From a virus (taxonomy: Duplodnaviria; Heunggongvirae; Uroviricota; Caudoviricetes), in IMG/VR virus record IMGVR_UViG_2703718846_000005, positions 1 through 17,376 of that record: a DNA stretch of 17,376 nt; one strand, 5' to 3'. Positions within the stretch are counted from its first letter, which is position 1. Every line of letters starts with the position of its first letter. Below, piece by piece: positions 966 to 14,574 of this stretch. The notes under the pieces are model-generated. The model did no database searches. It worked only from the letters and a program-made list of their open reading frames with translations, and was not told where the DNA came from. A program made the translations under genes and the position numbers.

Positions 966-966
966 C

Positions 967-2030: not shown

Positions 2031-2036
2031 CAAACA

Positions 2037-2289: not shown

Positions 2290-2356
2290 GCCCCAGTTAA
2301 CATTACGCGTCCTGCAAGACGCTTAACATTAATCTGAGGCTCAATCTATGAACGGC
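2290..2356 (-). ncRNA. sok: Sok-like antisense RNA (type I antitoxin) with its promoter
   Basis: Minus-strand promoter TTGCCT-17 nt-TAACCT (plus coords 2391-2386 and 2368-2363), matching my recollection of the R1 sok promoter TTGCGC-17-TATCCT; transcript would be antisense to the mok start region. Ends are approximate. Confidence 0.45.
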
Positions 2357-2560
2357 AAATCTAGGTTAGCCTCTTACGTGCCGAAAGGCAAGGAGAAGCA
2401 GGCTATGAAGCAGCAAAAGGCGATGTTAATCGCCCTGATCGTCATCTGTTTAACCGTCATTGTGACGGCACTGGTAACGAGGAAAGACCTCTGCGAGGTA
2501 CGAATCCGAACCGGCCAGACGGAGGTCGCTGTCTTCACAGCTTACGAACCTGAGGAGTAA
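2348..2560 (+). CDS. mok-like upstream reading frame, in frame with hok (70 codons)
   Basis: ATG 2348 opens a frame that contains the hok ATG 2405 and shares its stop; position matches mok of hok/sok loci. Confidence 0.4.
   Translation: MNGKSRLASYVPKGKEKQAMKQQKAMLIALIVICLTVIVTALVTRKDLCEVRIRTGQTEVAVFTAYEPEE
2405..2560 (+). CDS. hok: Hok/Gef-family type I toxin (51 aa)
   Basis: MKQQKAMLIALIVICLTVIVTALVTRKDLCEVRIRTGQTEVAVFTAYEPEE: single TM helix plus conserved C-terminal Hok motif; I recognise it as HokD/RelF-like; GGAGAAG SD upstream. Confidence 0.85.
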   Translation: MKQQKAMLIALIVICLTVIVTALVTRKDLCEVRIRTGQTEVAVFTAYEPEE

Positions 2561-2628
2561 GAGACCTGGCGGGGGAGAAATCCCTCGCCACCTCTGATGT
2601 GTCAGGCATCCTCAACGCACCCGCACTT

Positions 2629-2650
2629 AACCCGCTTCGGCGGGTTTTTC
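2629..2650 (+). terminator. Terminator at hok mRNA 3' end (copy 1 of 20-bp repeat)
   Basis: AACCCGC-ttcg-GCGGGTT hairpin followed by TTTT. Confidence 0.7.
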
Positions 2651-2717
2651 GTCGCATTATGAGGTTGTAATTTTAGCTACCATTAGACTATCCTAAGGAT
2701 CTCAAACAGATCTATTT

Positions 2718-2735
2718 TGCATCAAATTTGGTGCA
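2718..2735 (+). promoter_or_regulatory. Near-perfect 18-bp palindrome, candidate operator upstream of the Doc module
   Basis: TGCATCAAATTTGGTGCA (16/18 symmetric) about 40 bp upstream of ATG 2776; adjacent AGATCT-centred imperfect repeat. Confidence 0.4.
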
Positions 2736-2775
2736 TGGCTTTGCCAATAATCGGAAAACAAAAGGACTCATTAGT

Positions 2776-2955
2776 ATGAGCTGCCCACTCAAAAAACACA
2801 CGCGGTTGAGTATTCCGCCTCGCGATAAAAGCGTTGTGGCAGTCCCTCGCCCAGCGATTGATGAAAACTGCGCACATCGTGAACAAGTGAAAAATGCTTT
2901 TGATTTCGGTTTTTCTCGTTATGAGAAAGCCATGGAAGAACTTTCAAAAGTGTAA
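2776..2955 (+). CDS. Small protein (59 aa), candidate antitoxin partner of Doc
   Basis: ATG 2776 with AAGGA 10 nt upstream; stop 18 nt before doc start; position typical of an antitoxin, but sequence is not a recognisable Phd/YefM. Confidence 0.4.
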   Translation: MSCPLKKHTRLSIPPRDKSVVAVPRPAIDENCAHREQVKNAFDFGFSRYEKAMEELSKV

Positions 2956-2973
2956 TGATGGGTATTGTGCTCT

Positions 2974-3459
2974 ATGGCTGAGATTGTTGAAGGAGTGCAT
3001 TACCTTACGGTTGATGATCTTGTTGAAATCAATCGTTCCCTAATTGAATTACAGACGCCAGATGAGCCCGTTGGTGTTCTGAGTCCAGATAACTTAAGTT
3101 CTTCTCAGGCCCGTCCCAGCATGGTTCGATGGTATGAACAGACTAATGACATGTTTGTACTGGCATCGGTATTGATTGAAAGTCTGATTCAGAATCATCC
3201 GTTTGCTAATGCGAACAAACGAACAGCTATGATGGCTGGTTACGTCTTCTTGTTGTTGAATGGCTATGAGTTAACAGCACCAGGCGATGAAATCGTGGAA
3301 ATGGCAGAGGGACTGGCCTGCAAAACCTATACTCGAGAAGATCTCGAGAACTGGTTGTGTTATTGGTCTCGCGCGTATGACAGCCGGGAATTATGTAAAA
3401 CAGGCGCAACTATTGTTTTGTATGAAACTATCAAGCTTAAAATAGAACAGCAAAACTAA
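2974..3459 (+). CDS. doc: Doc (death-on-curing) family toxin, Fic fold
   Basis: Contains HPFANANKRTA, matching the Doc motif HxFx(D/N)(A/G)NKR; size about 160 aa; start could be TTG 2965 or ATG 2974. Confidence 0.8.
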   Translation: MAEIVEGVHYLTVDDLVEINRSLIELQTPDEPVGVLSPDNLSSSQARPSMVRWYEQTNDMFVLASVLIESLIQNHPFANANKRTAMMAGYVFLLLNGYELTAPGDEIVEMAEGLACKTYTREDLENWLCYWSRAYDSRELCKTGATIVLYETIKLKIEQQN

Positions 3460-3475
3460 AGGCGCTTCCAATGAA

Positions 3476-3500
3476 AACCCGCTTCGGCGGGTTTTGTTTT
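3476..3500 (+). terminator. Terminator after doc (copy 2 of 20-bp repeat)
   Basis: AAACCCGC-ttcg-GCGGGTTTTGTTTTTT; the 20 nt AACCCGCTTCGGCGGGTTTT are identical to 2629-2648. Confidence 0.7.
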
Positions 3501-3574
3501 TTCCGGGCATTCTGGTTTACAATCTGCACGCCAGCCTGAACAACTGGCACCTGCTGCGCCAGCAGAGAAAACAG

Positions 3575-3853
3575 ATGGCGCACAAGACCAAATTACACAA
3601 TTCTGATAATTCAGCCGCTTTTGCCAGCAGGCACGGGCGGCGTTCTCATGTATTCAAATCTGACTGGTACCAGCATCCCCCATGCACTGAAGAACAGGCC
3701 GAATGGCTGATTCAGTGTTACGGCAGGCGCGGATACGAGGTTAAGAAAGCCCTCAGCCTCGATTATCGTCACTGGATAATCTCTGTCAGGCTCCCTTATT
3801 CCGAACGCCCACCACACCCGTCCCGCACATTCCAGCAACGGATCTGGAGGTAA
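3575..3853 (+). CDS. Hypothetical protein (92 aa)
   Basis: ATG 3575 inside ORF 3494..3853; TACAAT -10-like element at 3515-3520; stop TAA overlaps the GGAGG SD of the next gene. Confidence 0.4.
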   Translation: MAHKTKLHNSDNSAAFASRHGRRSHVFKSDWYQHPPCTEEQAEWLIQCYGRRGYEVKKALSLDYRHWIISVRLPYSERPPHPSRTFQQRIWR

Positions 3854-3854
3854 C

Positions 3855-4904
3855 GTGCGGGTATTACTTCGACCTGTTCCGGTACCGGAACTCGGGCTGG
3901 TGGTCCTTAAGCCTGGTCGTGAATCCATGCAGGTATTTCATAACCCTCGAGTGCTGGTGGAGCCGGAACCGAAAAGCATGCGCGGTCTGCCGTCCGGAGT
4001 TGTTCCTGCTGTTCGCCAGCCGCTGGCGGAAGATAAATCATTACTGCCATTTTTCAGCGATGAGCGGGTGATTCGTGCTGCTGGCGGCGCTGGCGCACTG
4101 TCTGACTGGCTGTTGCGTCATGTCAAATCCTGCCAGTGGCCTCATGGTGACTATCATCACAGTGAAACCGTCATACATCGTTACGGTACCGGCGCAATGG
4201 TGTTGTGCTGGCACTGTGACAACCAGCTGCGTGACCAGACATCCGAATCACTCGGGCAGCTTGCTCAACAAAATCTGACAGCCTGGATGATTGACGTCAT
4301 ACGCCATGCAATGAATGGCACACAGGAGCGGGAATTATCGCTGGCTGAACTGTACTGCTGGGCTGCTGTAAATGATGTAGTGGATGCCATGACCGAAAAT
4401 ATGGCGCGTCGAATCCTGAAGCTTCCGGGTGAAAAAATCCACTCAGTATACCGCGAGAGTAACATCATACCGGGAGAACAGACAGCCACCAGCATACTGA
4501 AGCAGCGCACAAAAAATTTTGCGCCGTTGCCTCACGCCCACCAGCAACAGAACCCACCACAGGAAAAGACGGTTGTAAGTATCACAGTTGATCCGGAGTC
4601 ACCGGAATCATTCATGAAGCGGCCTAAACGTCGCCGCTGGGTGAATGAGAAATACACGCGCTGGGTAAAGACACAGCCGTGTACGTGTTGTGGTAAGCCA
4701 GCAGACGATCCCCATCACCTGATTGGTCACGGTCAGGGCGGAATGGGGACAAAAGCCCACGATATTTTTACGTTGCCGCTGTGTCGGGAACATCACAACG
4801 AACTTCATGCAGATCCGCAGGCGTTCGAAGAAAAGCATGGTTCTCAGGTTGATTTAATTTTTCGTTTTCTTGATCACGCCTTTGCAACTGGCGTACTCGG
4901 ATAA
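3855..4904 (+). CDS. DUF968-like prophage protein with C-terminal HNH-type Cys/His motif
   Basis: GTG 3855 with GGAGG SD; C-terminus CTCCGKPADDPHHLIGHGQGGMGTKAHDIFTLPLCREHHNELH; resembles Qin YdfU-type proteins (from memory). Confidence 0.65.
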   Translation: MRVLLRPVPVPELGLVVLKPGRESMQVFHNPRVLVEPEPKSMRGLPSGVVPAVRQPLAEDKSLLPFFSDERVIRAAGGAGALSDWLLRHVKSCQWPHGDYHHSETVIHRYGTGAMVLCWHCDNQLRDQTSESLGQLAQQNLTAWMIDVIRHAMNGTQERELSLAELYCWAAVNDVVDAMTENMARRILKLPGEKIHSVYRESNIIPGEQTATSILKQRTKNFAPLPHAHQQQNPPQEKTVVSITVDPESPESFMKRPKRRRWVNEKYTRWVKTQPCTCCGKPADDPHHLIGHGQGGMGTKAHDIFTLPLCREHHNELHADPQAFEEKHGSQVDLIFRFLDHAFATGVLG

Positions 4905-4916
4905 AAGAGGTTACTG

Positions 4917-5291
4917 ATGGGGATAGAATTTGTTTTGCCTTACCCGCCGACGGTAAACACCTACTGGCGACGCCGTGGCAGCACATATTTTATATCGGAA
5001 GCCGGTAAGCGTTATCGCCGTGATGTGGCACTTATAGTTCGCCAGCAGAGGCTGAAATTAAACCTGTCCGGAAGGCTGGCGATAACGGTTATTGCCGAGC
5101 CTCCGGATAAGCGCCGTCGTGATCTGGACAATATCCTGAAAGCGCCACTGGATGCACTGACACATGCGGGGTTGCTCATAGACGATGAGCAGTTTGATGA
5201 AATCAATATTGTGCGCGGTCAGCTCGTTCCTGGTGGGCGGCTGGGCGTGAAGATTTACGAAATAATGCATGACGGGCAGGTCCAAAAATGA
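4917..5291 (+). CDS. rusA: Holliday junction resolvase RusA
   Basis: ..RRRDLDNILKAPLDALTHAGLLIDDEQ.. matches the RusA catalytic region; AAGAGG SD; stop overlaps Q start (ATGA). Confidence 0.9.
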   Translation: MGIEFVLPYPPTVNTYWRRRGSTYFISEAGKRYRRDVALIVRQQRLKLNLSGRLAITVIAEPPDKRRRDLDNILKAPLDALTHAGLLIDDEQFDEINIVRGQLVPGGRLGVKIYEIMHDGQVQK

Positions 5292-6109
5292 AACTGGAAG
5301 ATTTACCGAAATACTATTCCCCAAAATCGCCAGGCCTGACTGATGTATCCGCCTCGACGTCAAAAGATGCACTGAGTATCACTGATGTGATGGCTGCGCA
5401 GGGGATGACACAGAACCGGGCTGAGATGGGATTTTCTGCGTTCCTGGGGAAAATGGGTATTAGTATGAATGACAGGGTGCGGGCAACAGAATTACTGACA
5501 GATTATGCATTAAGTCAGTGCGATCGTGTGGCGGCGTTAAGGAAACTTCCGGCAGAAATAAAACCGGCAGTGATGCGTATTATGGCTTCGTATGCTTTTG
5601 AGGATTATGCCCGCAGCGCAGCGAGTAAAAAGCAGTGCCCTTGTTGCCATGGGGAAAAATTTATTGAAAGCGAAGTTTTTACAAACAAGGTTCAGTATCC
5701 GGATGGTAAGCCGCCAGTATGGGCAAAGTGTACAAAAGGCGTGTATCCGTCTTACTGGGAAGAATGGAAAAAAATCCGGGAGGTGGTGAAAGTTTCCTGT
5801 CCTGAATGTAAAGGGAAGGGGGAGATCTCCACTGCCTGTAAAGACTGCCGTGGGCGTGGTGTTGCCATTCATCGTGAAGAGTCAGAAAAACGGGGTATGC
5901 CTGTTATCAGGGGCTGCCGGCGTTGTGGCGGTCGTGGCTATGAAAGACTGCCATCAACGGAGGCATTTAATGCCATATGCAAAGTGACGAGTGCTATCAC
6001 GCTTGATACATGGAAAAAATCAGTGAAACGCTTTTACGATACGTTGGTGGTTCGGTTTGACATTGAAGAGGCATGGGCGGAGCGGCAGTTAAAGATGGTA
6101 ACGCGATAG
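5288..6109 (+). CDS. Late-gene antiterminator Q (Phage_antitermQ-like) with four CxxCxGxG zinc-finger repeats
   Basis: N-terminus MKLEDLPKYYSPKSP typical of Q antiterminators of E. coli prophages; sits immediately upstream of the late promoter. Confidence 0.8.
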   Translation: MKLEDLPKYYSPKSPGLTDVSASTSKDALSITDVMAAQGMTQNRAEMGFSAFLGKMGISMNDRVRATELLTDYALSQCDRVAALRKLPAEIKPAVMRIMASYAFEDYARSAASKKQCPCCHGEKFIESEVFTNKVQYPDGKPPVWAKCTKGVYPSYWEEWKKIREVVKVSCPECKGKGEISTACKDCRGRGVAIHREESEKRGMPVIRGCRRCGGRGYERLPSTEAFNAICKVTSAITLDTWKKSVKRFYDTLVVRFDIEEAWAERQLKMVTR

Positions 6110-6112
6110 TGT

Positions 6113-6143
6113 TGTTGATTTTTCCCGAATCTGTGGTAAATTC
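6113..6143 (+). promoter_or_regulatory. pR'-like late promoter (extended -10), presumed qut region
   Basis: TTGATT (6116-6121), 16-nt spacer, TGgTAAATT extended -10 (6134-6143), immediately after Q stop; small hairpin CGCCC-taacgat-GGGCG at 6144-6160 just downstream. Confidence 0.4.
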
Positions 6144-6190
6144 GCCCTAACGATGGGCGTTTTGTGCCTGACGTTAGAAGAATTTTTACA

Positions 6191-6217
6191 ACCCGCCACC
6201 GAGCGGGTTTTTTATTG
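6191..6217 (+). terminator. tR'-like terminator of short late leader RNA
   Basis: CCCGC-caccgag-CGGG followed by TTTTTT, about 50 nt downstream of the predicted late start. Confidence 0.65.
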
Positions 6218-6336
6218 CCCGAAAAACGGTACAGAACATTAAACGCGCTGGTGGTTACGAATACCGGTCTTTCAGCTTGTATTTTTGTAAATCGATATAT
6301 ACTTATCTTGTGACCAGTAATGTCAGGGCAATTGAT

Positions 6337-7080
6337 ATGAATGAAGCCTGTTCTGTTGTTTTTGTTCATTCCCCGTTTGTTGTGCTCTTTGAAGGAAAAG
6401 AGCTCTCTCTTGAAAGTGGTAGTGCACTTCTTGTCAGGGGGGGAGCTGGATCGTTATTGCCCTTTTCGGAATGTTTTCGGCGAATAAGTCTCAGTGAATC
6501 GACAATTAGCCGTTACCTGTTGTGTGGAGACGAAAAACAGGATGTAGTTTTAGTCCGGCAAATACCACGATATCTTTGCGTGAGTTTTCCCAAGGCAGAA
6601 TTGATGGGCATCCTGATTGATTATCTTTGTGAGGAAAAGATTCATACGGACAATTTAGCGGAAATGCTTTCCTTTTCGTGTCTGGCGTTTTTCTCATCAG
6701 AGAAAATGTTTTCGTCGTTTCTGACCGCGTGTATTAGCAATATTAGTGACAGGCTTAGTGCATTGTTTCGTACGGACATTGCAGCAAACTGGACTCTGAG
6801 AGATGTGTCTTCGCGGTTATGTATCAGTGAAAGTTTGTTAAAAAAAAGACTGAAAGAAGAAGGCACCTGTTTCAGTGAGTTGTTGCTTACAGAGAGAATG
6901 AGAATGGCAGCAATGCTGTTGAATCAATCTCGTTGCGCCATCAACAGAATCGCTGCTCAGTGCGGCTATAATTTTACATCTTATTTTATCAGCGTATTCA
7001 GGAGTTATTTTGGTGTTACACCGGCAGGTTACAGGATGGCTGCATTCAATGAGATGAGTTTAAGTGTTACTCAAGAATAA
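6337..7080 (+). CDS. AraC/XylS-family transcriptional regulator (AppY/EnvY/GadX-like), AT-rich moron
   Basis: C-terminal dual HTH (..LLKKRLKEEGTCFSELLLTERMRMAAMLL..IAAQCGYNFTSYFISVFRSYFGVTPAGYR); N-terminus MNEACSVVFV resembles AppY-type regulators; visibly AT-richer than flanks. Confidence 0.85.
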   Translation: MNEACSVVFVHSPFVVLFEGKELSLESGSALLVRGGAGSLLPFSECFRRISLSESTISRYLLCGDEKQDVVLVRQIPRYLCVSFPKAELMGILIDYLCEEKIHTDNLAEMLSFSCLAFFSSEKMFSSFLTACISNISDRLSALFRTDIAANWTLRDVSSRLCISESLLKKRLKEEGTCFSELLLTERMRMAAMLLNQSRCAINRIAAQCGYNFTSYFISVFRSYFGVTPAGYRMAAFNEMSLSVTQE

Positions 7081-7102
7081 TTGAATTTTGCACTCATTGA
7101 AA

Positions 7103-7131
7103 AAGGCTCGCTCCGGCGGGCCTTTTTCATA
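7103..7131 (+). terminator. Terminator after the AraC-family gene
   Basis: GGCTCGC-tccg-GCGGGCC hairpin (one mismatch) followed by TTTTTC. Confidence 0.5.
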
Positions 7132-7264
7132 TCTGCGCCACGCCCGGCGCACATCAAAAAACCACAGAGCCTTTCAGGGGGGAGCTTACGGGATGGTCAG
7201 TGTGACTTTCTCTGTGGGCTGCTCATCCCGGGGCGAGGCTCACCCACTAAAAGGAAAAGTCACG

Positions 7265-7690
7265 ATGTTTGGTATTTTCAAAAAGAAAACCCGTAAGGCT
7301 ATTACTGAAGTGAAGAAAATGGAGAACCGCGACGCAGTGGAGGCGACCGTCTGGGGCGCGTATTCCATTGCATACGCTGACGACACCTGTGACGCGAAAG
7401 AAATTGCGGTACTGGAGAAAACCATTGCAGCACTTCCTGCCTTTGCGCCGTTCTCCGGTGAGATTGCACAAATGAGTGCAAATATCCGCGCCCGTTATGA
7501 AGCATCACCGCGTTCTGCCAATGCTGAAGCTCTTCGTCAGCTGGCTGATGTTGCAGGTACTGATGATGCAGTTAATGTGCTGTGCCTGTGTCTCGATATT
7601 GCTGACCAGGACGGTATTGGTCCGGATGAAGAAGCACAGCTCAAGAAAATTGCGCAGGCGCTGCAGTTGCCACTGGAGCAGTATCTGTGA
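7265..7690 (+). CDS. TerB-like (tellurite-resistance TerB family) protein
   Basis: ATG 7265 with AAAGGA SD; two TerB-like helical repeats (AYSIAYADDTCDAKEIAVLEKTI and VLCLCLDIADQDGIGPDEEAQLKKIAQAL) resembling TerB as I remember it. Confidence 0.65.
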   Translation: MFGIFKKKTRKAITEVKKMENRDAVEATVWGAYSIAYADDTCDAKEIAVLEKTIAALPAFAPFSGEIAQMSANIRARYEASPRSANAEALRQLADVAGTDDAVNVLCLCLDIADQDGIGPDEEAQLKKIAQALQLPLEQYL

Positions 7691-7845
7691 AAACTGCGCG
7701 CCTTGTGCTGGCTGCCATCCTGTTGTTTCTGGTAGTGGCGGTTGATTTCACCGGGCGCCTGATGTCGGTGCTGGCTGATGGCGTGCTGGTGGTGATGGTA
7801 GTGGTCGTGCTCCGGCCTTTATTCCGGAACAAAAACAACAGCTGA
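7687..7845 (+). CDS. Small membrane peptide (52 aa) translationally coupled to the TerB-like gene
   Basis: GTG overlaps TerB-like stop (GTGA); product VKTARLVLAAILLFLVVAVDFTGRLMSVLADGVLVVMVVVVLRPLFRNKNNS is predicted TM; terminator follows. Confidence 0.4.
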   Translation: MKTARLVLAAILLFLVVAVDFTGRLMSVLADGVLVVMVVVVLRPLFRNKNNS

Positions 7846-7852
7846 TTATTTG

Positions 7853-7882
7853 AGCGGGCATTGAAAGCCCGCTGCATTTTTA
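7853..7882 (+). terminator. Terminator of the TerB-like unit, overlapping the stop of the convergent minus-strand gene
   Basis: AGCGGGC-attgaa-GCCCGCT hairpin followed by TTTTTA; the minus-strand side lacks a U-run. Confidence 0.55.
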
Positions 7883-8560
7883 TTGCTGCTGTTCCTTAAT
7901 GCGTTCCGGTAGCACAAATGCCACTTCAAGGAACAGGCGGAGAAACGCCACAAACTCTTTTGCCTGTTCACTACTGGCCTCGAGTTCGTGCACAGCCTCA
8001 TTGCCTTCCATACGGATTCGGTGAGCCCAGTTTCTCATTGATTCCGTCAGTATGCCGTCCTGCCGTGCCAGTTCAATGCGTGACAGCAGATTGCCTTTTT
8101 CGTACCCCAGGGCACGGAGGGCAACCTCGAGGACGCTACGGCAGCCAACAATGATACGCGGGGCGGTTCTGCCGGACCGAACATCCTCCTGCAACTCAGT
8201 GAAGACTGCGCGAATTTTTTCGGGATAGTGGGGGGAGTCATCGGGCAGCCTGAGTTCAGGATAGATTTTGATGCTTCCCTCAAGTGGAGCATTCAGCACC
8301 CAGGCTTTGTTGTTGATGGCTTTTTTCATGTCCACCAGTTCACTGACTGAACATTCGAATGCGATCATTAATGGGTTGTTACATTCTGTGCAAAAGTCTG
8401 TTGAGTATGCTTTTGCTGATGTTATTTCAGAGGTGCGCGGCTGTTGCACGTAAAGCTTGTTTTCTGTAGCCGGGCGCCTGCTGTGGTACTGGGTGACCTC
8501 ATTCAGAGAAATATGAACCTGATGAAGGCAGTACGGGCATCTAATTTTCAGGGAGTACAT
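7880..8560 (-). CDS. Zn-ribbon plus DUF4145-domain protein (226 aa), candidate defence/abortive-infection-type protein
   Basis: N-terminal CPYC...CTEC zinc ribbon; C-terminus ..RSVLEVALRALG..LLSRIELARQDGILTESMRNWAHRIRMEGNEAVHE..AKEFVAFLRLFLEVAF matches the DUF4145 pattern from memory; start at minus ATG 8560-8558 with AAGAGG SD. Confidence 0.65.
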   Translation of the reverse strand: MYSLKIRCPYCLHQVHISLNEVTQYHSRRPATENKLYVQQPRTSEITSAKAYSTDFCTECNNPLMIAFECSVSELVDMKKAINNKAWVLNAPLEGSIKIYPELRLPDDSPHYPEKIRAVFTELQEDVRSGRTAPRIIVGCRSVLEVALRALGYEKGNLLSRIELARQDGILTESMRNWAHRIRMEGNEAVHELEASSEQAKEFVAFLRLFLEVAFVLPERIKEQQQ

Positions 8561-8767
8561 ATGACCTCTTCGACAGAAGTGATAACTGAATTTGAAAATT
8601 GCATAGCAGATTCTGCCATTGATTCTGTAGCAGCGATAGAACGAAGGTTTGCTGCTGCTCAGACCCGGTATGGTCATGATGCAGCCGTCAAGGGGCTGGC
8701 AATGGCGTTTGTTATTGCGGAGAACCGCCGTCGCTTTATTGAAGCGCAAATGACACTAAAGCAATAA
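8561..8767 (+). CDS. Hypothetical small helical protein (68 aa)
   Basis: ATG 8561 with GGGAG SD 5 nt upstream; tandem terminators follow; start codon abuts the divergent DUF4145 gene start (CATATG). Confidence 0.45.
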   Translation: MTSSTEVITEFENCIADSAIDSVAAIERRFAAAQTRYGHDAAVKGLAMAFVIAENRRRFIEAQMTLKQ

Positions 8768-8780
8768 ATAGCACCACACA

Positions 8781-8841
8781 AAAGGCATCTGTGGGTGCCT
8801 TTGACTGGGTGTTTTTTTACGGGCCGACAGAGGCCCTTTTT
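8781..8841 (+). terminator. Tandem rho-independent terminators
   Basis: AAAGGCA-8 nt loop-TGCCTTT then U-run; GGGCC-gacaga-GGCCC then TTTTTT. Confidence 0.6.
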
Positions 8842-8860
8842 TATTTACAGGAGAAAAAGT

Positions 8861-9250
8861 ATGTCTGAACCCTTATCCGGTTCCGGCACGGCTGCGGCGC
8901 TCGGCGGGGCGACGGTATTCGGGCTGTTTACCGGAACGGATTTCGGGATTGTGTTTGGTGCATTCGCAGGGGCGCTGTTTGTGGCCACGATACCACAGAA
9001 GATTTCTGTCTGGCGTGTGGCAGCGCATTTTCTGGTGTCGTTCATTGTTGGCGTGCTGGGGGCGGATGTGATGGCGTCTTACCTGGTTGAAAAACTGAAT
9101 CTCCACAGCACATCTCTCGACGCACTTTGCGCGGTACTGGTATCGGTGGTGTCGGTGAAGATTCTCTCATTCATCCACCAGCAGGATATCGCATCGCTGG
9201 TATCCGGGCTGTTCTCCCGTCTGCGGGGTGGAGGCGGTAATGTTAAGTAA
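8861..9250 (+). CDS. Putative holin (3 predicted TM segments, 129 aa)
   Basis: AGGAG SD before ATG 8861; three hydrophobic segments, charged C-terminus; first gene of lysis cluster. Confidence 0.6.
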   Translation: MSEPLSGSGTAAALGGATVFGLFTGTDFGIVFGAFAGALFVATIPQKISVWRVAAHFLVSFIVGVLGADVMASYLVEKLNLHSTSLDALCAVLVSVVSVKILSFIHQQDIASLVSGLFSRLRGGGGNVK

Positions 9251-9515
9251 CCTTCCCGGATTACTGAATGTGGTGTTAAGCACGGTTATCGTGCTGACGC
9301 TCTTTTTTTATCGTCGCCGTGATTCCAGACATAAACCGCTGATGTCATGGCTGGCCTGGCTACTGATGCTGCTTTATGCCTTTGCACCACTCAGCTATCT
9401 GTGCGGTCGCCCGTTAGCGGCGAACTGGCTGGCGGTGGGGCTTAATCTGCTGTTCTGCGTGCTGGTGATACGTGCACGCGGGAACGTTTCAAAAATCCTT
9501 TCATTCCGGAGGTGA
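9240..9515 (+). CDS. Second holin/antiholin-like membrane protein (91 aa)
   Basis: ATG 9240 overlaps holin stop; three hydrophobic segments; basic C-terminus. Confidence 0.5.
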   Translation: MLSNLPGLLNVVLSTVIVLTLFFYRRRDSRHKPLMSWLAWLLMLLYAFAPLSYLCGRPLAANWLAVGLNLLFCVLVIRARGNVSKILSFRR

Positions 9516-9517
9516 GC

Positions 9518-9895
9518 ATGTCGGGTAAATTCAGATTCAGTCGTCGCAGTGAAAAAAATCTGGAGGGCGTCAAACCACAGCTGGTTGCTGTTGTTCGCCG
9601 TGCGCTGGAGCTGACGGAGGTTGATTTCGGTATTACGGAAGGTCTGCGCAGTAAGTATCGCCAGAAACAGCTGGTTGCAGAAGGTAAGAGCCAGACCATG
9701 AACAGCCGCCACCTGACCGGTGATGCTGTGGATGTTGTGGCTTATGTTGGCAGCCAGGTGTCATGGGACTGGCCTCTGTACGAGAAAATCGCACAGGCAT
9801 TTAAGCAAGCTGCCGCAGAGCTTGGAACTGCCATCGAATGGGGCGGTGACTGGCGGACGCTTAAAGACGGCCCACATTTTCAATTGAAGCGATAG
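9518..9895 (+). CDS. Endolysin, peptidase M15 family (L-alanyl-D-glutamate peptidase / VanY-like)
   Basis: SRHLTGDAVDV (SxHxxGxAxD zinc-binding motif) and ..WGGDWRTLKDGPHFQL; GGAGG SD before ATG 9518. Confidence 0.8.
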   Translation: MSGKFRFSRRSEKNLEGVKPQLVAVVRRALELTEVDFGITEGLRSKYRQKQLVAEGKSQTMNSRHLTGDAVDVVAYVGSQVSWDWPLYEKIAQAFKQAAAELGTAIEWGGDWRTLKDGPHFQLKR

Positions 9896-9912
9896 CTTGC
9901 AAAACATACAGG

Positions 9913-9934
9913 GCCGCCATGAGCGGCTTTTTTA
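9913..9934 (+). terminator. Terminator after endolysin
   Basis: GCCGC-catga-GCGGC followed by TTTTTT. Confidence 0.65.
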
Positions 9935-9965
9935 TTGCTCAAAAAACGAAAGAACGGAGGTACGT

Positions 9966-10247
9966 ATGTACGCACTGAAAAAAATCACGGTAACTAAAGA
10001 TGGTCGTCAGGTTGAAGAAGTGCATGTTCTGGGGAATATGTATCGTCTGGAGTTCTATCCGCGTGACACTCATCTTGCAGCAAAAATTGAGTATTGCCTG
10101 GGCGGGGATATTCCATGTATTCCGGTAGAAAAAGAGGATGAGGCTTACATTACCACGCTGACCGGAGACACGGTGCGTTGTATCTGTCGCGGTGACAGTA
10201 AAGCCAGGAATGAAATAGCCAGATGCCGCACCCAAGGCAGTAAATAA
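9966..10247 (+). CDS. Hypothetical Cys-containing protein (93 aa)
   Basis: ACGGAGG SD before ATG 9966; bounded by terminators on both sides. Confidence 0.5.
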   Translation: MYALKKITVTKDGRQVEEVHVLGNMYRLEFYPRDTHLAAKIEYCLGGDIPCIPVEKEDEAYITTLTGDTVRCICRGDSKARNEIARCRTQGSK

Positions 10248-10254
10248 AAAACAA

Positions 10255-10287
10255 AACCCCGGCTGCTGGAACAGTCCGGGGTTTTTA
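10255..10287 (+). terminator. Strong rho-independent terminator
   Basis: CCCCGG-13 nt loop-CCGGGG followed by TTTTT. Confidence 0.85.
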
Positions 10288-10377
10288 GTTTTCACGTCAA
10301 AGAGGAAATTGTGAGTAGTGAGTACGGAGAAAATCCTCGTGGGAAAGTATAAAAGATTCTTTTTGAGGTTGTCCATT

Positions 10378-10491
10378 ATGAAAGGTATTGAAGTGGAAAC
10401 TCCCGCGAGCCTTGATTTGACAAGGGCTGCGGCCTTTGCAATTCGCCTTGTGGCGGTCGCTGTTCTGATTTGGGCTGTGCGTTGGTGGTGA
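10378..10491 (+). CDS. Small TM peptide (37 aa)
   Basis: GAGG SD before ATG 10378; MKGIEVETPASLDLTRAAAFAIRLVAVAVLIWAVRWW; stop 1 nt before the lipoprotein start. Confidence 0.35.
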   Translation: MKGIEVETPASLDLTRAAAFAIRLVAVAVLIWAVRWW

Positions 10492-10492
10492 C

Positions 10493-10675
10493 ATGAGCCG
10501 AAAACACTGGACACACAGAATGCCTCGAACGGCGGTGAAATGGGCGCTGATAGCGATACTGGTGCCTTTTTTCCTGGTGGGATGTGTCAGCCTGGATAAA
10601 GCGCGCCAGCTTTTTGATACAGCTTCTCAGGTCTGTGAAATTGTCGACGGTGTTCGGCAGTGTCTGCAGAACTGA
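10493..10675 (+). CDS. Small predicted lipoprotein (60 aa)
   Basis: Basic n-region, hydrophobic core ALIAILVPFFLVG, lipobox LVGC; short mature part with 3 Cys; not proline-rich like lambda Rz1. Confidence 0.5.
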   Translation: MSRKHWTHRMPRTAVKWALIAILVPFFLVGCVSLDKARQLFDTASQVCEIVDGVRQCLQN

Positions 10676-10846
10676 TCGCCTGTAAGAGCAGAATATTTTG
10701 CTGAAAAATGAAGGATGCGCCGGCGTCCGGAAAGCATGAAATTCTGTGTTTGTGGCTACTCAATTAAATAAATTCTTTCTGTCGCCGCGAATACTCAAAT
10801 GTTGATCAGCGCCCGGTGCGGCGACGAGCTTCGATATCAGGAGACG

Positions 10847-11146
10847 ATGATGGAAAAAACAGAAAACAAACCGATTGTAATTGGTGCTGATGCTGCTCCG
10901 TTTAAGTTTGAGTTGTCTCAACTGGTGGAGATGCGCATCAGTGATGAATGGGGGGAGGTTAAAGCCCGCGCGCAGTATGCGGATGGCGAAAACCAGTACT
11001 TGATCCACTACAAAGCAGCTGATGGTCGCGCCACGACGGAGTGGTTTGGTGAGTCAATGCTGGAAGCAACGGAAGATGATCGCCATCCTGGCTGTCCGGT
11101 ATTTGCTGGTATGAAATTGCCGGAAGGTGCGGTTGTTACAGAGTAA
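10847..11146 (+). CDS. Hypothetical acidic protein (about 99 aa)
   Basis: AGGAGA SD (10838-10844) before ATG 10847/10850; in ORF 10799..11146. Confidence 0.5.
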   Translation: MMEKTENKPIVIGADAAPFKFELSQLVEMRISDEWGEVKARAQYADGENQYLIHYKAADGRATTEWFGESMLEATEDDRHPGCPVFAGMKLPEGAVVTE

Positions 11147-11351
11147 CAGACATTACAGCAGCCCTTCAGCGAGGGGCTGCGATAATGTGAGAAATAAAAA
11201 ACCGGTCACAGGGAACAGCCACACAGAACCGGCCGGCGAAGACCGCCAATATCACCCGAGCATCGGTACAACATACTTATGACAATAGACGGTATTGATG
11301 TAAATGCAATGTTATGCATCGACGAAAATAAAAAACCGGCAGGGGAAATCC

Positions 11352-11492
11352 ATGGAAGATTTGCCGGTGGCGAAAGAGGGCCATGTTTTTAACCTTAGTC
11401 GCAGAGTTACGGAGTGCAACTACGAATGCTGCCGGTATATGGCTGAATGGCGTTTCAATGATGTGCATCATGTTATGCGCAAACGAAAGTGA
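11352..11492 (+). CDS. Small Cys-rich ORF (46 aa), doubtful
   Basis: Internal ATG of ORF 11304..11492; weak SD. Confidence 0.2.
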   Translation: MEDLPVAKEGHVFNLSRRVTECNYECCRYMAEWRFNDVHHVMRKRK

Positions 11493-11504
11493 TAATCGCT
11501 CCCG

Positions 11505-11690
11505 TTTTCACGGGTCCTTTCCGGGAGTTGAAACACCGGGGGTCGTAGGACGCGCAAAAACGCGCTATTTATGAAAATTTTCAGGGAACCATGTCCGGTT
11601 TCACTACTGGTTAACTATATGAAAAATATAAAAACAAGCTTTTTGTGAACCGGACATGTACAAAAAACGAACATGCAAACCGGACATGAG
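11505..11690 (+). promoter_or_regulatory. cos site region (cosQ-like, cosN region, cosB with IHF-like A/T tract and three R-like repeats)
   Basis: TTTTCACGGGTCCTTTCCGG and GCTATTTATGAAAATTTTC match the lambda right/left end sequences as I remember them; 10-bp motif ACCGGACATG occurs at 11649-11658 and 11679-11688 and inverted at 11590-11599; lies directly upstream of the Nu1-like gene. Confidence 0.6.
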
Positions 11691-11732
11691 CGGTTTTCTG
11701 ATTGTGAGGTGAGAGTTTTTGCGAGGTGAGTC

Positions 11733-12242
11733 GTGGCTACGCAGACTGAAGTTGCCAGGCATTTGAGTCTGACCGATCGCCAGCTTCGCAGATTGCAGAA
11801 ATTGCCGGGTGCCCCGGTCTCGAATAAACGGGGGCATCATGACTTGGATGCCTGGCGTGATTTTTACATATCGTATCTGAGGAGAAGTAAAAATGATGTG
11901 TCTGATGGTGATAGCGAAGAAGACTATGAAGAAAAATTACTTATCGCCAGATGGAAATTGACTGAAGAACAGGCAATAGCACAGCAATTAAAAAATCAGG
12001 TAACTGAAGGCAGACTTATTGATTCAGGGTTCTGCGTTTTCGCCCTCAGCAAACTGGCGATGGCATTGTCCAGTACGCTTGATTCCATTCCTTTATCCAT
12101 GCAGCGACAGTTCCCGGATTTAACCCCGCGTCATATTGATTATCTGAAAACCCTTATCGCAAAGGGAGCGAATCAGTGTGCGCGGGCAGGGGATAAATTG
12201 CCGGAGTTACTCGATGAATATATCCGAACAACAGTTGAATAA
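11733..12242 (+). CDS. Terminase small subunit (lambda Nu1-like)
   Basis: GTG start with GAGGTGAG SD; ..FCVFALSKLAMALSSTLDSIPLSMQRQFPDLTPRHIDYLK.. closely parallels lambda gpNu1; overlaps the large-subunit start as in lambda. Confidence 0.9.
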   Translation: MATQTEVARHLSLTDRQLRRLQKLPGAPVSNKRGHHDLDAWRDFYISYLRRSKNDVSDGDSEEDYEEKLLIARWKLTEEQAIAQQLKNQVTEGRLIDSGFCVFALSKLAMALSSTLDSIPLSMQRQFPDLTPRHIDYLKTLIAKGANQCARAGDKLPELLDEYIRTTVE

Positions 12243-14574
12243 TATGATGATCGCCGTCACAACCGCATTACAGCCACTAATAAGGGCATTGCCGGTCACG
12301 CCGGTTGAATGGGCTGATCAAAATTATTATCTGCCTAAAGAATCGTCATACGGTGAAGGAGAGTGGAAAACCCTGCCGTTTCAGGTCGCCATTATGAACA
12401 GCATGGGGCACGACAGGATCCGCACTGTTAATCTGATTAAATCGGCGCGTGTGGGTTACACCAAAATGCTGCTGGGCGTGGTCGGGTATTTTATTGAGCA
12501 TAAATCCCGTAACAGCCTGCTCTTCCAGCCGACAGATTCCGCAGCTGAAGATTTTATGAAAGCGCATGTGGAAGCAACGCTCCGGGATGTCCCCAGCCTT
12601 AAAGCGTTATCGCCATGGCTGGGCAGAAAACATCGGGACAACACACTCACCCTGAAGCGTTTTTCCTCCGGCGTGGGGTTCTGGTGCCTGGGGGGGGCCG
12701 CTGCTAAAAACTACCGTGAAAAATCTGTGGATGTGGTCTGCTATGACGAACTCTCCTCGTTTGAACCGGATGTGGAAAAAGAAGGCTCGCCGACGCTGCT
12801 TGGCGATAAACGTATCGAAGGCTCGGTATGGCCTAAATCCATACGCGGCTCAACGCCAAAAATTAAAGGCTCCTGCCAGATTGAGAAAGCGGCGAATGAA
12901 TCTGCGCATTTCATGCGGTTTTATGTCCCTTGCCCTCATTGCGGGGAGGCCCAGTATCTGAAGTTTGGCGATGATGCGACGCCGTTTGGCCTGAAATGGG
13001 AGAAGGGTAAACCCGAAACGGTGTATTACCTGTGTGAACATAATGGCTGTGTGATCCGCCAGTCGGAACTTGACCAGACCGACGGATGCTGGATTTGTGA
13101 CAATACCGGGATGTGGACGCGTGACGGCCTGACATTTTACAGTGCCGGTGATGAGGAAATCCCGCCACCGCGCTCAATTTCGTACCACATCTGGACGGCA
13201 TACAGCCCGTTCACCACCTGGGTACAGATTGTTTATGACTGGCTCGATGCACTGAAGGATCCGAATGGCGTCAAGACGTTCATTAACACCACGCTCGGGG
13301 AGCCCTATGAAGAGGCCGTGGCAGAAAAACTGAGCTTTGAGTTGTTGCTGGAAAAAGTCTGCCACTATGGCGCGCAGGTTCCCCTGCGGGTGGTTTACCT
13401 GACCGCAGGGATAGACTCCCAGAAAGATCGCTATGAAATTTATGTTTGGGGCTGGGCTCCCGGCGAAGAAGCCTTTCTGATTGACAAGCAAATTATCATG
13501 GGGCGACCGGAGGACGAGGACACCCTTAAACGTGTTGATGCGGTGATCCGGAAAAAATACCGCCATGCTGACGGTACTGAAATTTCCATTTCCCGCGTCT
13601 GCTGGGATACCGGTGGTATCGACCAGGACATTGTGTATCAGCGATCCAGAAAACACGGCACTTTTTTTGTGCTTCCCATAAAAGGGGCATCGGTGTATGG
13701 CAAGCCGGTGATCACCATGCCCAAAAAGCGCAACCAGCGTGGTGTGTTTTTGTGTGAGGTGGGCTCCGATACCGTCAAGGAAATGCTGTACGCCCGTTTT
13801 GCCCTGCCGGTGGTTTCTGCCAGTGAAGCAGCTCCGTATACCTTCCGTTTTCCGGATAACCCGGACATTTTTTCGGAAGAAGAGGCGCGTCAAATCGTAG
13901 CGGAAGAACTGGTGGAAAAGGTGGTTAACGGCAGGGTGAAACTGCTGTGGGATAAAAAAGGGCGACGCAACGAAGCCCTCGACTGCCTGGTATATGCTTA
14001 TGCCGCCCTGCGCGTTTCGGTACAGCGGTGGCAACTGGACCTTGAAGCACTGGCGATGGCACGAAAAGATGAGCAGGATGAGGATGATATGAGCATGGAA
14101 GAGATCGCGGCTGCACTGAGTGGAGGATATTCCAGTGCCAGGGCATCCGCCAATGAGTCGTGGCGGTATTTTATGGGAAAACGAAAATTTGTGGCCAGTC
14201 GCCTGGCGTCACAGATGTTTGCCTGCTGGCTGGAGGAAGCCCTTATTCGTGGTGTGATCCGTCCGCCGAAATCCCGTTTCTCATTCTGGGAGGCTCGTTC
14301 CGGGTGGTGCCGTGCCGAGTGGATTGGTGCCGGTCGTATGGCGATTGATGGCCTTAAGGAAGTGCAGGAAGCGGTGATGCGCATTGAAGGCGGCCTGAGT
14401 ACATACGAGAAAGAGCTGGCCCTGATGGGGGATGACTATCAGGAGATTTTCCGCCAGCAGCTACGGGAAACTCAGGAGCGACAGGCTGCCGGTCTTCCGC
14501 GTCCGGTCTGGATAAAGGACGCGTTTCAACAGCAGATCCGACAGACAACGGGAGAAAAAGGCGATGCGCTGTAA
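12214..14574 (+). CDS. Terminase large subunit (lambda gpA-like) fused in frame to the C-terminal part of the portal protein (gpB-like)
   Basis: N-terminus MNISEQQLNN..VEWADQNYYLPKES..GDKRIEGSVWPKSIRGSTPK.. follows lambda gpA for about 637 aa; from about 14128 the frame continues as ..YSSARASANESWRYFMGKRKFVASR..MAIDGLKEVQEAVMRIEGGLSTYEKE.., which matches the lambda portal C-terminus (from memory). Confidence 0.85.
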   Translation: MNISEQQLNNMMIAVTTALQPLIRALPVTPVEWADQNYYLPKESSYGEGEWKTLPFQVAIMNSMGHDRIRTVNLIKSARVGYTKMLLGVVGYFIEHKSRNSLLFQPTDSAAEDFMKAHVEATLRDVPSLKALSPWLGRKHRDNTLTLKRFSSGVGFWCLGGAAAKNYREKSVDVVCYDELSSFEPDVEKEGSPTLLGDKRIEGSVWPKSIRGSTPKIKGSCQIEKAANESAHFMRFYVPCPHCGEAQYLKFGDDATPFGLKWEKGKPETVYYLCEHNGCVIRQSELDQTDGCWICDNTGMWTRDGLTFYSAGDEEIPPPRSISYHIWTAYSPFTTWVQIVYDWLDALKDPNGVKTFINTTLGEPYEEAVAEKLSFELLLEKVCHYGAQVPLRVVYLTAGIDSQKDRYEIYVWGWAPGEEAFLIDKQIIMGRPEDEDTLKRVDAVIRKKYRHADGTEISISRVCWDTGGIDQDIVYQRSRKHGTFFVLPIKGASVYGKPVITMPKKRNQRGVFLCEVGSDTVKEMLYARFALPVVSASEAAPYTFRFPDNPDIFSEEEARQIVAEELVEKVVNGRVKLLWDKKGRRNEALDCLVYAYAALRVSVQRWQLDLEALAMARKDEQDEDDMSMEEIAAALSGGYSSARASANESWRYFMGKRKFVASRLASQMFACWLEEALIRGVIRPPKSRFSFWEARSGWCRAEWIGAGRMAIDGLKEVQEAVMRIEGGLSTYEKELALMGDDYQEIFRQQLRETQERQAAGLPRPVWIKDAFQQQIRQTTGEKGDAL

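Follow-up and report, generated by a model that had tools for sequence, protein, structure and literature searches.

A predicted RAZR-like defense gene and a conserved 68-aa gene abut at their start codons, point away from each other and travel together as a small mobile cassette of prophages. We analyzed a 17,376-nt stretch of viral DNA (Caudoviricetes; IMG/VR record IMGVR_UViG_2703718846_000005, positions 1 to 17,376), referred to here as the window. The minus-strand gene of the pair encodes a DUF4145 protein, and the plus-strand gene encodes a small protein. The reading that we favor, to which we assign a probability of about 45%, is that the RAZR-like gene is expressed in the lysogen and that lytic read-through would both oppose it in antisense and make a candidate immunity protein, all within this one cassette.

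At the junction of the two genes, ...AGGGAGTACATATGACCTCTTCG... spans positions 8550-8572. Within it, the minus-strand CAT (8558-8560) abuts the plus-strand ATG (8561-8563) with 0 nt between them, and each gene has a Shine-Dalgarno (SD) sequence that lies inside the first codons of the other (Table 1). Both features had been pointed out in the initial annotation, and both hold. The anti-SD duplex energy is -7.7 kcal/mol for the small ORF and -6.5 kcal/mol for the DUF4145 gene, compared with a mean of -2.9 kcal/mol and a 10th percentile of -6.4 kcal/mol for random 18-mers drawn from the window. Among 14 homologous loci, the small-ORF SD is at -4.9 kcal/mol or stronger in 9, and the SD of the DUF4145 gene is at -6.0 kcal/mol or stronger in 13. 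An in-frame indel of 3 nt removes the small-ORF SD in E. coli A34. Leaderless mRNAs were considered and rejected, since neither hexamer at -12 to -7 (CAGGGA on the plus strand, GAAGAG on the minus strand) resembles a -10 element and both genes have an SD.

Homologous loci present the junction as CAT-ATG, CAT-N-ATG, CAT-NN-ATG or a shared CATG. In 13 sequence-distinct lineages the genes lie head-to-head with a start-codon spacing of -2, 0, +1 or +2 nt. This spacing is not due to chance, because it stays between -2 and +2 nt in all 13 lineages while synonymous sites are saturated. The junction nucleotides themselves are weakly conserved beyond coding constraints.

Table 1. Features of the two-gene cassette and its surroundings (positions in the window)
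Feature	Position	Strand	Description
Two-gene cassette, ~930 bp	7841..8773	both	delimited by DNA alignment with the empty site L003
Terminator-like hairpin	7853..7873	+	AGCGGGC-ATTGAAA-GCCCGCT, then GCATTTTTAT; immediately beyond the DUF4145 3' end
RAZR-like predicted defense gene, 226 aa	7880..8560	-	TAA stop at 7880-7882; Cys4 zinc ribbon and DUF4145/HEPN
SD of the small ORF, AGGGAG	8550..8555	+	5 nt before the ATG; antisense to DUF4145 codons 2-4 (Tyr-Ser-Leu)
CATATG junction	8558..8563	both	two start codons on adjacent triplets, zero intergenic bases
Small partner gene, 68 aa	8561..8767	+	stop at 8765-8767; predicted three-helix bundle
SD of the DUF4145 gene, GAAGAGG	8565..8571 (complement)	-	4 nt before the ATG; antisense to small-ORF codons 2-4 (Thr-Ser-Ser)
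Terminator-like hairpin of the backbone	8821..8836	+	between the cassette and the holin gene
Holin gene	8861-9250		downstream of the cassette

Both members of the pair are conserved coding genes. In an alignment of 18 DUF4145 homologues, Met-1 is invariant and N-terminal down to 43% identity, and the small protein likewise keeps its Met-1 in all 14 homologues. Because of this invariance, we judge both start codons to be the true starts. The comparison of conservation and dN/dS across homologues that had been suggested in the initial annotation gave an omega of ~0.08 for the small ORF, in the sense frame only, indicating strong purifying selection. The sense frame is also the only one that is free of stops in 14/14 loci; in the codon-aligned antisense frame, omega is ~2 and half of the loci have stops.

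The initial annotation had allowed that one of the two ORFs is spurious. The 68-aa ORF would then merely mirror, in antisense, a longer DUF4145 ORF, or the N-terminus of the DUF4145 protein would go untranslated. Such a view could draw on the minus-strand frame, which is open up to 8749 in the window, and on strain C5, where the PGAP call shortens the DUF4145 gene to 162 aa and leaves a 192-nt gap. It is countered by the frame statistics of the small ORF, by a 1-nt spacer in Salmonella that breaks the extended minus-strand frame, by the indel in A34, which keeps the frame, and by the Met-1 and Cys4 ribbon upstream of the PGAP start, which are invariant in 18 homologues. We consider the idea refuted and leave it next to no probability. 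These data also correct the public annotation, in which the DUF4145 call is truncated at 162 aa and the small-ORF call is over-extended to 95 aa.

The minus-strand protein has the predicted architecture of RAZR (PD-T7-4), a zinc ribbon joined to a DUF4145/HEPN domain. The cysteines of its N-terminal Cys4 ribbon (C8, C11, C57 and C60) are invariant in the 18 homologues, as are R183 and H191 in the C-terminal DUF4145/HEPN domain. It matches Pfam PF13643 (DUF4145) with an E-value of 1.4e-11 (44.7 bits vs a cut-off of 23.1) and phrog_1305 over the full length (6.5e-24). The match to the PADLOC model PD-T7-4 is weak (E = 2.8e-4) and covers residues 99-225 only, the HEPN half; 12/18 family members match this model, with a best E-value of 6.5e-5. 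An AF2 model places beta-strands at residues 2-24 and 48-71 in the ribbon region, and its best fold matches are the HEPN proteins 2q00 (probability 0.98) and 7ae6, the latter being the reference structure used in the RAZR paper (PMC13017515). For the zinc-ribbon region, Foldseek returned weak matches only, to ribosomal zinc-ribbon proteins. A RAZR structure in the PDB was found by none of the sequence, profile or fold searches.

RAZR is a ring-activated zinc-finger RNase that acts through abortive infection; ring-forming phage proteins such as portals activate it, it assembles as a 24-mer and it cleaves ssRNA (PMC13017515). The RAZR system of E. coli UMB1727 functions with one gene only, which often overlaps an integrase gene, and is not toxic alone; the paper mentions no partner or inhibitor (PMC13017515). 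The protein described here resembles RAZR in having an N-terminal Cys4 zinc ribbon followed by DUF4145/HEPN, and in R183/H191, which stand 8 positions apart just as the catalytic R146/H154 of RAZR do (PMC13017515). A length of ~210-230 aa and carriage on mobile elements are further likenesses, and the match to the PD-T7-4 model is weak but recurs among family members. The two differ in that the sequence match is confined to the HEPN half, that the zinc-ribbon region is ~37 residues longer in the protein here, and that the present subfamily lies antisense inside prophage operons with a conserved head-to-head small partner (13 lineages). RNase activity, ring assembly and triggers are features of RAZR, whereas the protein here is known from sequence and models.

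The family of the small ORF has three predicted helices, is very rare and carries no annotation. In alignments, residues 1-61 form a conserved core and the C-terminal tail is variable, with a conserved basic patch, ENRRR, where the tail begins. The AF2 model has a pLDDT of 85.5. No family match was found in Pfam, PHROGs or PADLOC, and fold searches of the PDB and BFVD returned nothing with an E-value below 2.6. Neither an HTH nor any other nucleic-acid-binding family or fold was matched, and a tblastn search of 50,697 phage records returned nothing. The small gene also occurs without the DUF4145 gene in other phages, and one such solo copy lies in the early region of a Mu-like phage.

An otherwise collinear prophage of E. 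coli EC11 (L003) lacks the cassette, and its DUF3927 gene is followed directly by the holin leader. Among complete E. coli genomes the cassette is carried by only 6/5426. The 13 lineages with the head-to-head pair come from Enterobacterales, Paraburkholderia and metagenomes, and the pair is hosted at varied positions in lambdoid and Mu-like prophages, in at least 7 flanking contexts and two bacterial orders. It lies between Rz and Nu1 in Salmonella, between Rz and terminase on a metagenome contig, and upstream of gemA/mor in a Paraburkholderia Mu-like prophage. At other loci it is found between Q and holin, in a nin-like region, or just downstream of a cro-like gene.

The two genes are divergent at all loci. 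In 11/11 lineages with readable flanks, the small gene is co-directional with the phage operon and the DUF4145 gene is opposed to it; the flanks of L011 and L012 were read from cruder ORF maps for this count. Protein divergence of the two genes is correlated, with r = 0.83 over 66 locus pairs. On this comparative evidence, we conclude that the pair is inherited and moved as one mobile unit. Shared mobility and co-evolution of this kind suggest that the two genes are likely linked at the protein level as well as at the RNA level.

Two loci (L014/L015) retain an intact DUF4145 gene next to a decayed small partner (ATG to ATA; stop at codon 31). The small gene is therefore not indispensable. More distant homologues of the DUF4145 protein, in Klebsiella phage 2b LV-2017 and Burkholderia phage phi644-2, have upstream spacers of 90-130 nt and no head-to-head partner.

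A scan for consensus sigma-70 sites gave a single weak hit on the plus strand, within the small ORF, and none on the minus strand. A PWM scan was run over 420 nt upstream of the DUF4145 start (11 loci) and 760 nt upstream of the small ORF (10 loci). No site exceeded shuffle noise, the top scores being 5-9 bits vs a shuffled median best of 8.3; this holds both for a sigma-70 promoter of the DUF4145 gene in or beyond the small ORF and for a promoter-like site of the small ORF inside the DUF4145 gene. A recurrent candidate in five enterobacterial loci ([A/G]TG[A/G]CA, 18-19 nt, then CAAAAT/TCAAAT, ending ~30 nt before the start) is explained by conserved codons (DS..., FEN). When small-ORF codons 6-58 were tested by synonymous recoding for an embedded promoter, no locus gave a significant result (Fisher p = 0.15).

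Terminator-like hairpins lie on either side of the gene pair. The one next to the DUF4145 3' end is oriented to halt plus-strand transcription of the phage operon ahead of its antisense entry into the DUF4145 gene. Counterparts are present in A34, Trabulsiella and Budvicia and not at all loci. A general role for this terminator as an insulator of the antisense gene was rejected, as the hairpin is seen in only four lineages. The hairpin upstream of the holin gene is not part of the cassette, because the empty site has it too.

We propose the following sequence of events. In the lysogen, a weak promoter situated within the small ORF or farther out would drive the DUF4145 gene, whose 5' UTR, including the SD, would therefore be antisense to the first codons of the small ORF. 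The DUF4145 product would guard the host against superinfecting phages. Upon induction, a Q-antiterminated transcript coming from upstream (or, in other phages, one of the early operon) would run antisense over the 680-nt DUF4145 gene, and collision, promoter occlusion and duplex RNA would reduce DUF4145 expression. The same lytic transcript would deliver the small ORF with its own SD, and the small protein would then act on the RNase, most likely as an inhibitor. Inhibition would keep the prophage's own ring proteins from triggering abortive infection during its lytic cycle. The predicted defense gene is thus probably both silenced in antisense and neutralized by the phage's own lytic transcription.

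From these considerations we infer that the small protein is a candidate self-immunity or anti-defense factor. Phages with the small gene alone would use it for anti-defense, and the location of a solo copy in the early region of a Mu-like phage is as expected for an anti-defense gene. A bolder version, in which the small protein founds a new inhibitor family of RAZR-like RNases, the abutting or overlapping starts act as a minimal lysogeny/lysis switch, and the solo copies are anti-RAZR genes, is tentative and on balance somewhat unlikely.

Elements of this scheme had been put forward in the initial annotation, which supposed that the small ORF is expressed by late read-through, that the DUF4145 gene is expressed in the lysogen, and that the result would be an antisense switch. 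The switch is consistent with the orientation of the genes (11/11 lineages) and with the scan inside the DUF4145 gene, where no promoter-like site for the small ORF rose above shuffle noise, and it may operate as supposed. The word "late" is too narrow, as the cassette elsewhere sits in early operons, either immediately after a cro-like gene or ahead of gemA/mor. Nor did the initial annotation recognize the DUF4145 gene as RAZR-like or the pair as a single mobile cassette whose genes co-evolve.

Some observations count against the reading that we favor. E. coli A34 does without the small-ORF SD, and L014/L015 keep the DUF4145 gene with a decayed partner. In the scans no sigma-70 promoter of the DUF4145 gene rose above noise, and the recoding test gave no hint of one embedded in the small ORF. 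RAZR acts on its own, with one gene, and the resemblance in sequence to PD-T7-4 is weak and limited to the HEPN half. The distant homologues in 2b LV-2017 and phi644-2 have no head-to-head partner.

Other explanations of the pair were weighed against the same data. Genome compaction alone would make the DUF4145 gene an antisense moron placed tightly beside a phage gene unrelated to it, and there would be neither a functional link nor a switch. A parallel is found in Stx phages, where a distant DUF4145 homologue, POCJ13 gp20, lies head-to-head with an 81-aa ORF (gp21) over a shared CATG; gp21 has no detectable homology to the small protein and occurs alone in phiSTEC1589, with homology breaking exactly at the ORF start. 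The complete gp20/gp21 type is present in at least 36/5426 complete E. coli genomes. By hhalign, the small protein and gp21 align with a probability of only 0.18, and an ALA.MAIE.ERR-like motif common to the two is an impression only. The solo copies of the small gene also speak for compaction. However, the pair is missing as a unit from sister prophages, recurs as a unit in its many lambdoid and Mu-like contexts, co-diverges, and has kept its spacing within 4 nt despite saturated synonymous sites. These data make compaction alone unlikely.

A functional link could also take forms other than inhibition. If the small protein regulated expression by binding the shared start region as DNA or RNA, for example as a repressor or translational regulator of DUF4145, the tight and conserved overlap of the translation-initiation regions, the conserved ENRRR patch and the co-inheritance of the genes would all be understandable. 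The searches for nucleic-acid-binding families and folds found no match, however, the junction sequence is poorly conserved apart from coding constraints, and the small gene stands alone in phages without the DUF4145 gene, so that we regard such a regulator as rather improbable. About as improbable is a positive role as sensor, adaptor or activator in a two-gene defense system. Many defense systems are multi-gene, and the small gene strictly co-occurs and co-diverges with the DUF4145 gene. But the genes are divergent, and a small gene within lytic operons would be made mainly when the resident phage is lytic; in addition, the DUF4145 gene stays intact after partner decay, RAZR is a single-gene system, and phages carry solo copies of the small gene.

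Self-immunity through a linked element, as in the reading that we favor, has precedents among prophage defenses. BstA/aba combines prophage defense with cognate lytic-phase self-immunity (PMC8585504), and TerI/anti-TerI1,2 likewise provides cognate self-immunity (bioRxiv 10.1101/2025.02.27.640495). The cassette would resemble both in pairing a predicted prophage defense gene with a tightly linked element that may spare the phage's own lytic cycle. It differs from them in that aba is a DNA element inside bstA and the anti-TerI factors are proteins without sequence relation to the small protein; neither system has been described with abutting divergent start codons.

The cassette also recalls excludons, which are divergent genes with overlapping transcripts and mutually exclusive expression, defined from transcript maps (PMC12288877). 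With a zero gap, any SD-bearing transcript of one gene is antisense to the 5' end of the other, and a transcript of the phage operon is antisense to the whole DUF4145 gene; the likeness is one of geometry, whereas excludons rest on transcript maps. Classical excludons have an intergenic region and long overlapping UTRs, in contrast to the abutting starts and reciprocal SDs found here.

A HEPN RNase with a small linked gene is also reminiscent of type II toxin-antitoxin systems (HEPN-MNT). There, both genes run in the same direction within a single operon and viability depends on the antitoxin, whereas the present genes are divergent. We rejected a type II system, as the genes are divergent at every locus, the RNase gene outlives its partner (L014/L015), and RAZR is not toxic alone. 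T4 Dmd is a phage protein of ~60 aa that directly inhibits the host/plasmid RNase toxin RnlA/LsoA, which has a HEPN-type domain. Dmd differs from the small protein in having no known sequence or fold relation to it and in being encoded by the attacking phage, not beside the RNase gene.

RAZR was characterized only in 2026 (Nature 2026), as a single-gene sensor of phage portal rings (PMC13017515). When a prophage carries such a sensor, its own ring proteins could trigger the RAZR-like enzyme on induction. The cassette offers a testable answer to this problem, with a conserved partner placed to be made when lytic transcription crosses the predicted defense gene in antisense. The regulatory layout is also unusually compact: the two divergent genes have no intergenic DNA, each SD is embedded in the opposite gene, and the arrangement is conserved in two bacterial orders. 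Should the small protein prove to be an inhibitor, it would be a first candidate anti-RAZR protein and a tool for studies of RAZR activation.

The start codons of two divergent genes abut exactly in this window. At 8550-8572 the sequence reads AGGGAGTACATATGACCTCTTCG, in which the CAT that opens a minus-strand DUF4145 gene (226 aa) meets the ATG of a plus-strand 68-aa ORF with 0 nt between them. The predicted duplex energy with the 16S anti-Shine-Dalgarno is -7.7 kcal/mol for the plus-strand Shine-Dalgarno sequence (SD) and -6.5 kcal/mol for the minus-strand SD; random 18-mers from the window have a mean of -2.9 and a 10th percentile of -6.4 kcal/mol. The initial annotation's description of abutting divergent starts and SDs is accurate. 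Across 14 loci compared, the DUF4145 SD was at -6.0 kcal/mol or stronger in 13 and the small-ORF SD at -4.9 kcal/mol or stronger in 9; the small ORF of E. coli strain A34 lacks an SD. Reciprocal SDs are the rule among these loci. The feature is real: a RAZR-like zinc-finger HEPN defence gene lies head-to-head with a conserved, uncharacterised small partner in a ~930-bp cassette.

Features of the window around the head-to-head genes
Feature	Coordinates	Strand	Remark
RusA	4917-5291	+	
Antiterminator Q	5288-6109	+	
AraC-type gene (AraC-family regulator)	6277-7080	+	
TerB-like gene	7088-7690	+	
DUF3927/TciB-like gene	7687-7845	+	small protein
Terminator-like hairpin	7853-7873		upstream of the cassette genes in the plus-strand direction
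DUF4145 gene	7880-8560	-	start codon CAT, 8558-8560
SD of small ORF	8550-8555	+	AGGGAG, 5 nt before plus-strand ATG
Small ORF	8561-8767	+	start codon ATG, 8561-8563
SD of DUF4145 gene	complement of 8565-8571	-	GAAGAGG, 4 nt before minus-strand ATG
Hairpin	8781-8802	+	between cassette and holin gene
Hairpin, terminator-like	8821-8836	+	between cassette and holin gene; T-run
Two holins	8861-9250 and 9228-9515	+	downstream of cassette
M15 endolysin, then Nu1 and large terminase subunit		+	downstream of holins

The initial annotation had also proposed that one of the ORFs might be spurious. Conservation and dN/dS of each frame across homologues refute this and show that both genes are real and their starts correct. 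The same Met opens all 18 DUF4145 homologues aligned (identity down to 43%) and is followed by [YF][ST]xKxKCPHC; cysteines C8, C11, C57 and C60, together with R183 and H191, are invariant. Met-1 is also invariant in the small-ORF homologues, which share the core SE[VL]I..FE.CI.DS..DS.AAIE..FAL.Q...G.D.A[VI]KGLAMAF.I.ENRRR. When compared with the Salmonella, Trabulsiella and Budvicia copies (Nei-Gojobori), the sense frame of the small ORF showed dN of 0.10-0.29, saturated dS and omega (dN/dS) of ~0.08-0.09 where computable, whereas the codon-aligned antisense frame, the one that would lengthen the DUF4145 ORF, had an omega of ~2. The DUF4145 frame is open in the window to 8749, 63 codons upstream of the real start and through the whole small ORF (a 289-aa TTG ORF), and this extension is under no purifying selection. 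Half of the related loci do not keep it open, and in Salmonella the 1-nt spacer (CAT-A-ATG) breaks it. The sense frame of the small ORF alone is free of stops in 14/14 loci examined, and a 3-nt difference in A34 is in frame for DUF4145.

Public annotation of both genes is inconsistent. The common Met and invariant cysteines indicate that the 162-aa PGAP call for DUF4145 in E. coli strain C5 (L002 3681-4169), which leaves a 192-nt gap and omits the zinc ribbon, is truncated and that the back-to-back 225-aa call in A34 is correct. One NCBI record lengthens the small ORF to 95 aa.

The minus-strand protein matches Pfam DUF4145 (1.4e-11) and, over its full length (residues 2-225), phrog_1305 (6.5e-24). 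DUF4145 belongs to the HEPN family (PMC3710099). PD-T7-4, renamed RAZR (ring-activated zinc-finger RNase), combines an N-terminal Cys4 zinc ribbon with a DUF4145/HEPN RNase domain carrying catalytic R146 and H154. RAZR alone is not toxic; its activators are ring-forming phage proteins (portals, Gp77), and it assembles around the rings, cleaves RNA and aborts infection (PMC13017515). The window protein has the same architecture, and the Arg-to-His separation is 8 positions in both. The PADLOC PD-T7-4 model matches it weakly (2.8e-4, residues 99-225), with hits to 12 of 18 relatives (best 6.5e-5). The PDB entries closest to its AF2 model (pLDDT 76.8) are two HEPN proteins, 2q00 and 7ae6, and the RAZR study took 7ae6 as its reference structure (PMC13017515); no RAZR chain was retrieved from the PDB for direct comparison. 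These data suggest that the protein represents a RAZR-like but distinct prophage-borne subfamily.

The small protein is predicted to form a three-helix bundle (pLDDT 85.5). Searches of Pfam, PHROGs, PADLOC, PDB and BFVD gave no match to it, nor did 50,697 phage records. Its family is very rare, with 14 clusters among 5.8 billion proteins and, in a set of 1.84 billion, ~10 credible representatives.

The window is a lambdoid, phiP27-like prophage, in which the DUF4145 gene is the only minus-strand gene among those listed from RusA to terminase. Q-dependent late transcription must therefore cross DUF4145 antisense before reaching the small ORF and the lysis genes. Three co-directional accessory genes (AraC-type, TerB-like and DUF3927/TciB-like) occupy the usual lambdoid moron position between Q and the cassette. 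The TerB-holin region has 84% DNA identity to a record named Actinobacillus phage vB_Apl-pPE4 (PP818812.1), an unexpected match for an E. coli prophage given the stated host. Further downstream (12178-16793), the ORF of the large terminase subunit has an unusual length of 798 aa, against ~640 aa for lambda gpA. An S49 head protease comes directly after it, then a gene for a tail-fibre N-terminal domain; a scan of the large ORFs showed no portal ORF. The head-tail region of the prophage may have been deleted or rearranged.

Of 5426 complete E. coli genomes, only 6 have the segment. Strain EC11 has a collinear prophage in which the holin leader directly follows the DUF3927 gene, and the ~930 bp that the window has in addition (about 7841-8773) contain exactly the two genes. 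Both hairpins before the holin gene are also present at this empty site and so belong to the phage backbone. Elsewhere the cassette lies between an Rz-like gene and Nu1 (Salmonella prophages), between Rz and terminase (a metagenome contig), between Q and holin (another lambdoid phage), just upstream of gemA/mor (a Paraburkholderia Mu-like prophage), in a nin-like region and immediately downstream of a cro-like gene; Trabulsiella, Budvicia and Pantoea hold further copies. The gap between start codons is -2 (shared CATG), 0, +1 or +2 nt in 13 sequence-distinct lineages. Identities of the two proteins correlate (Pearson r = 0.83, 66 pairs, 12 loci), indicating that they diverged together. The small gene is co-directional with the phage operon and the DUF4145 gene opposed to it in 11/11 lineages with readable flanks, as counted from gene calls plus a cruder long-ORF map for Trabulsiella and Budvicia, with Pantoea and two contigs (L034/L035) left out as too short or anomalous. 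The two genes form a mobile cassette that moves between prophage operons.

Each gene can occur without an intact partner. The small gene stands alone, with no DUF4145 gene, at two loci (L022 3001-3261 and L036 1252-1464): on one short contig and in the early region of a Mu-like phage, where it lies just upstream of gemA/mor with an ordinary upstream neighbour; in Mu itself, this region holds accessory, host-takeover-type genes. Conversely, in a lambdoid prophage (L014/L015, about 2400-2503) DUF4145 is intact, but its partner has decayed: the start codon is lost (CATA for CATG), and codon 31 is a stop. On a metagenome scaffold (L034 1500-1911), only the first ~105 residues of DUF4145 (the zinc ribbon) are left beside the small gene, and beyond them the sequence enters a gene called as P2 tail protein S, so the locus is either what recombination left behind or an assembly chimera. 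Neither gene strictly depends on the other, and the pair is therefore not a toxin-antitoxin system of the classical kind.

A more distantly related zinc-ribbon DUF4145 gene, gp20, is found in Stx phages of the POCJ13 and 75/02 type; its product is 31% identical to the window protein (hhalign probability 99.3 over the HEPN half). The gene follows ren in the early-right operon, in antisense orientation, and stands head-to-head with the 81-aa ORF gp21 (Shigella phage POCJ13, L039 1508-2426), with a shared CATG and strong reciprocal SDs. No homology between gp21 and the window small protein was detected (probability 0.18). phiSTEC1589-Stx1c has gp21 alone, and homology breaks off precisely at codon 2 or 3 of gp21. 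Among the 5426 complete E. coli genomes, at least 36 have the whole gp20/gp21 variant. In Klebsiella phage 2b LV-2017 and Burkholderia phage phi644-2, still remoter DUF4145 homologues are preceded by ordinary spacers of 90-130 nt and lack a head-to-head partner, so the layout is typical of one DUF4145 branch and not universal.

Because there is no intergenic DNA, any DUF4145 mRNA carrying its SD runs antisense to the opening codons of the small ORF, and any small-ORF mRNA is antisense to the DUF4145 start. No promoter-like site for the small ORF was found inside the DUF4145 gene; with the constant operon-wise orientation, this makes operon read-through the simplest source of its mRNA. The initial annotation had offered late read-through with an antisense switch as its other reading. 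On orientation and the small-ORF promoter result, this is better supported than a spurious ORF, although unproven, and "late" transcription is too narrow a term.

Several points weigh against such a switch: the A34 small ORF has no SD, and the defence gene outlives its partner in L014/L015. Further weak points are that promoter scans identified no promoter for the defence gene and that a synonymous-recoding test for a promoter lying within the small ORF gave no such signal (p = 0.15). Among other accounts of the small gene, an unrelated neighbour is unlikely; we doubt still more that its product is a regulator, and a positive co-factor is the least probable of these.

The proposed switch would run in three steps. 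The lysogen would express the defence gene. Lytic transcription would then reduce this expression by interference and duplex formation; in the window, the read-through transcript would be Q-antiterminated, pass the terminator-like hairpin at 7853-7873 and be antisense to the defence gene over its entire 680 nt. The same transcript would also yield the small protein, which may neutralise the RNase and so keep the ring proteins of the prophage itself from triggering it. Excludons are a known parallel for the RNA part of this switch, and BstA/aba and TerI/anti-TerI for the proposed combination of prophage defence and self-immunity.
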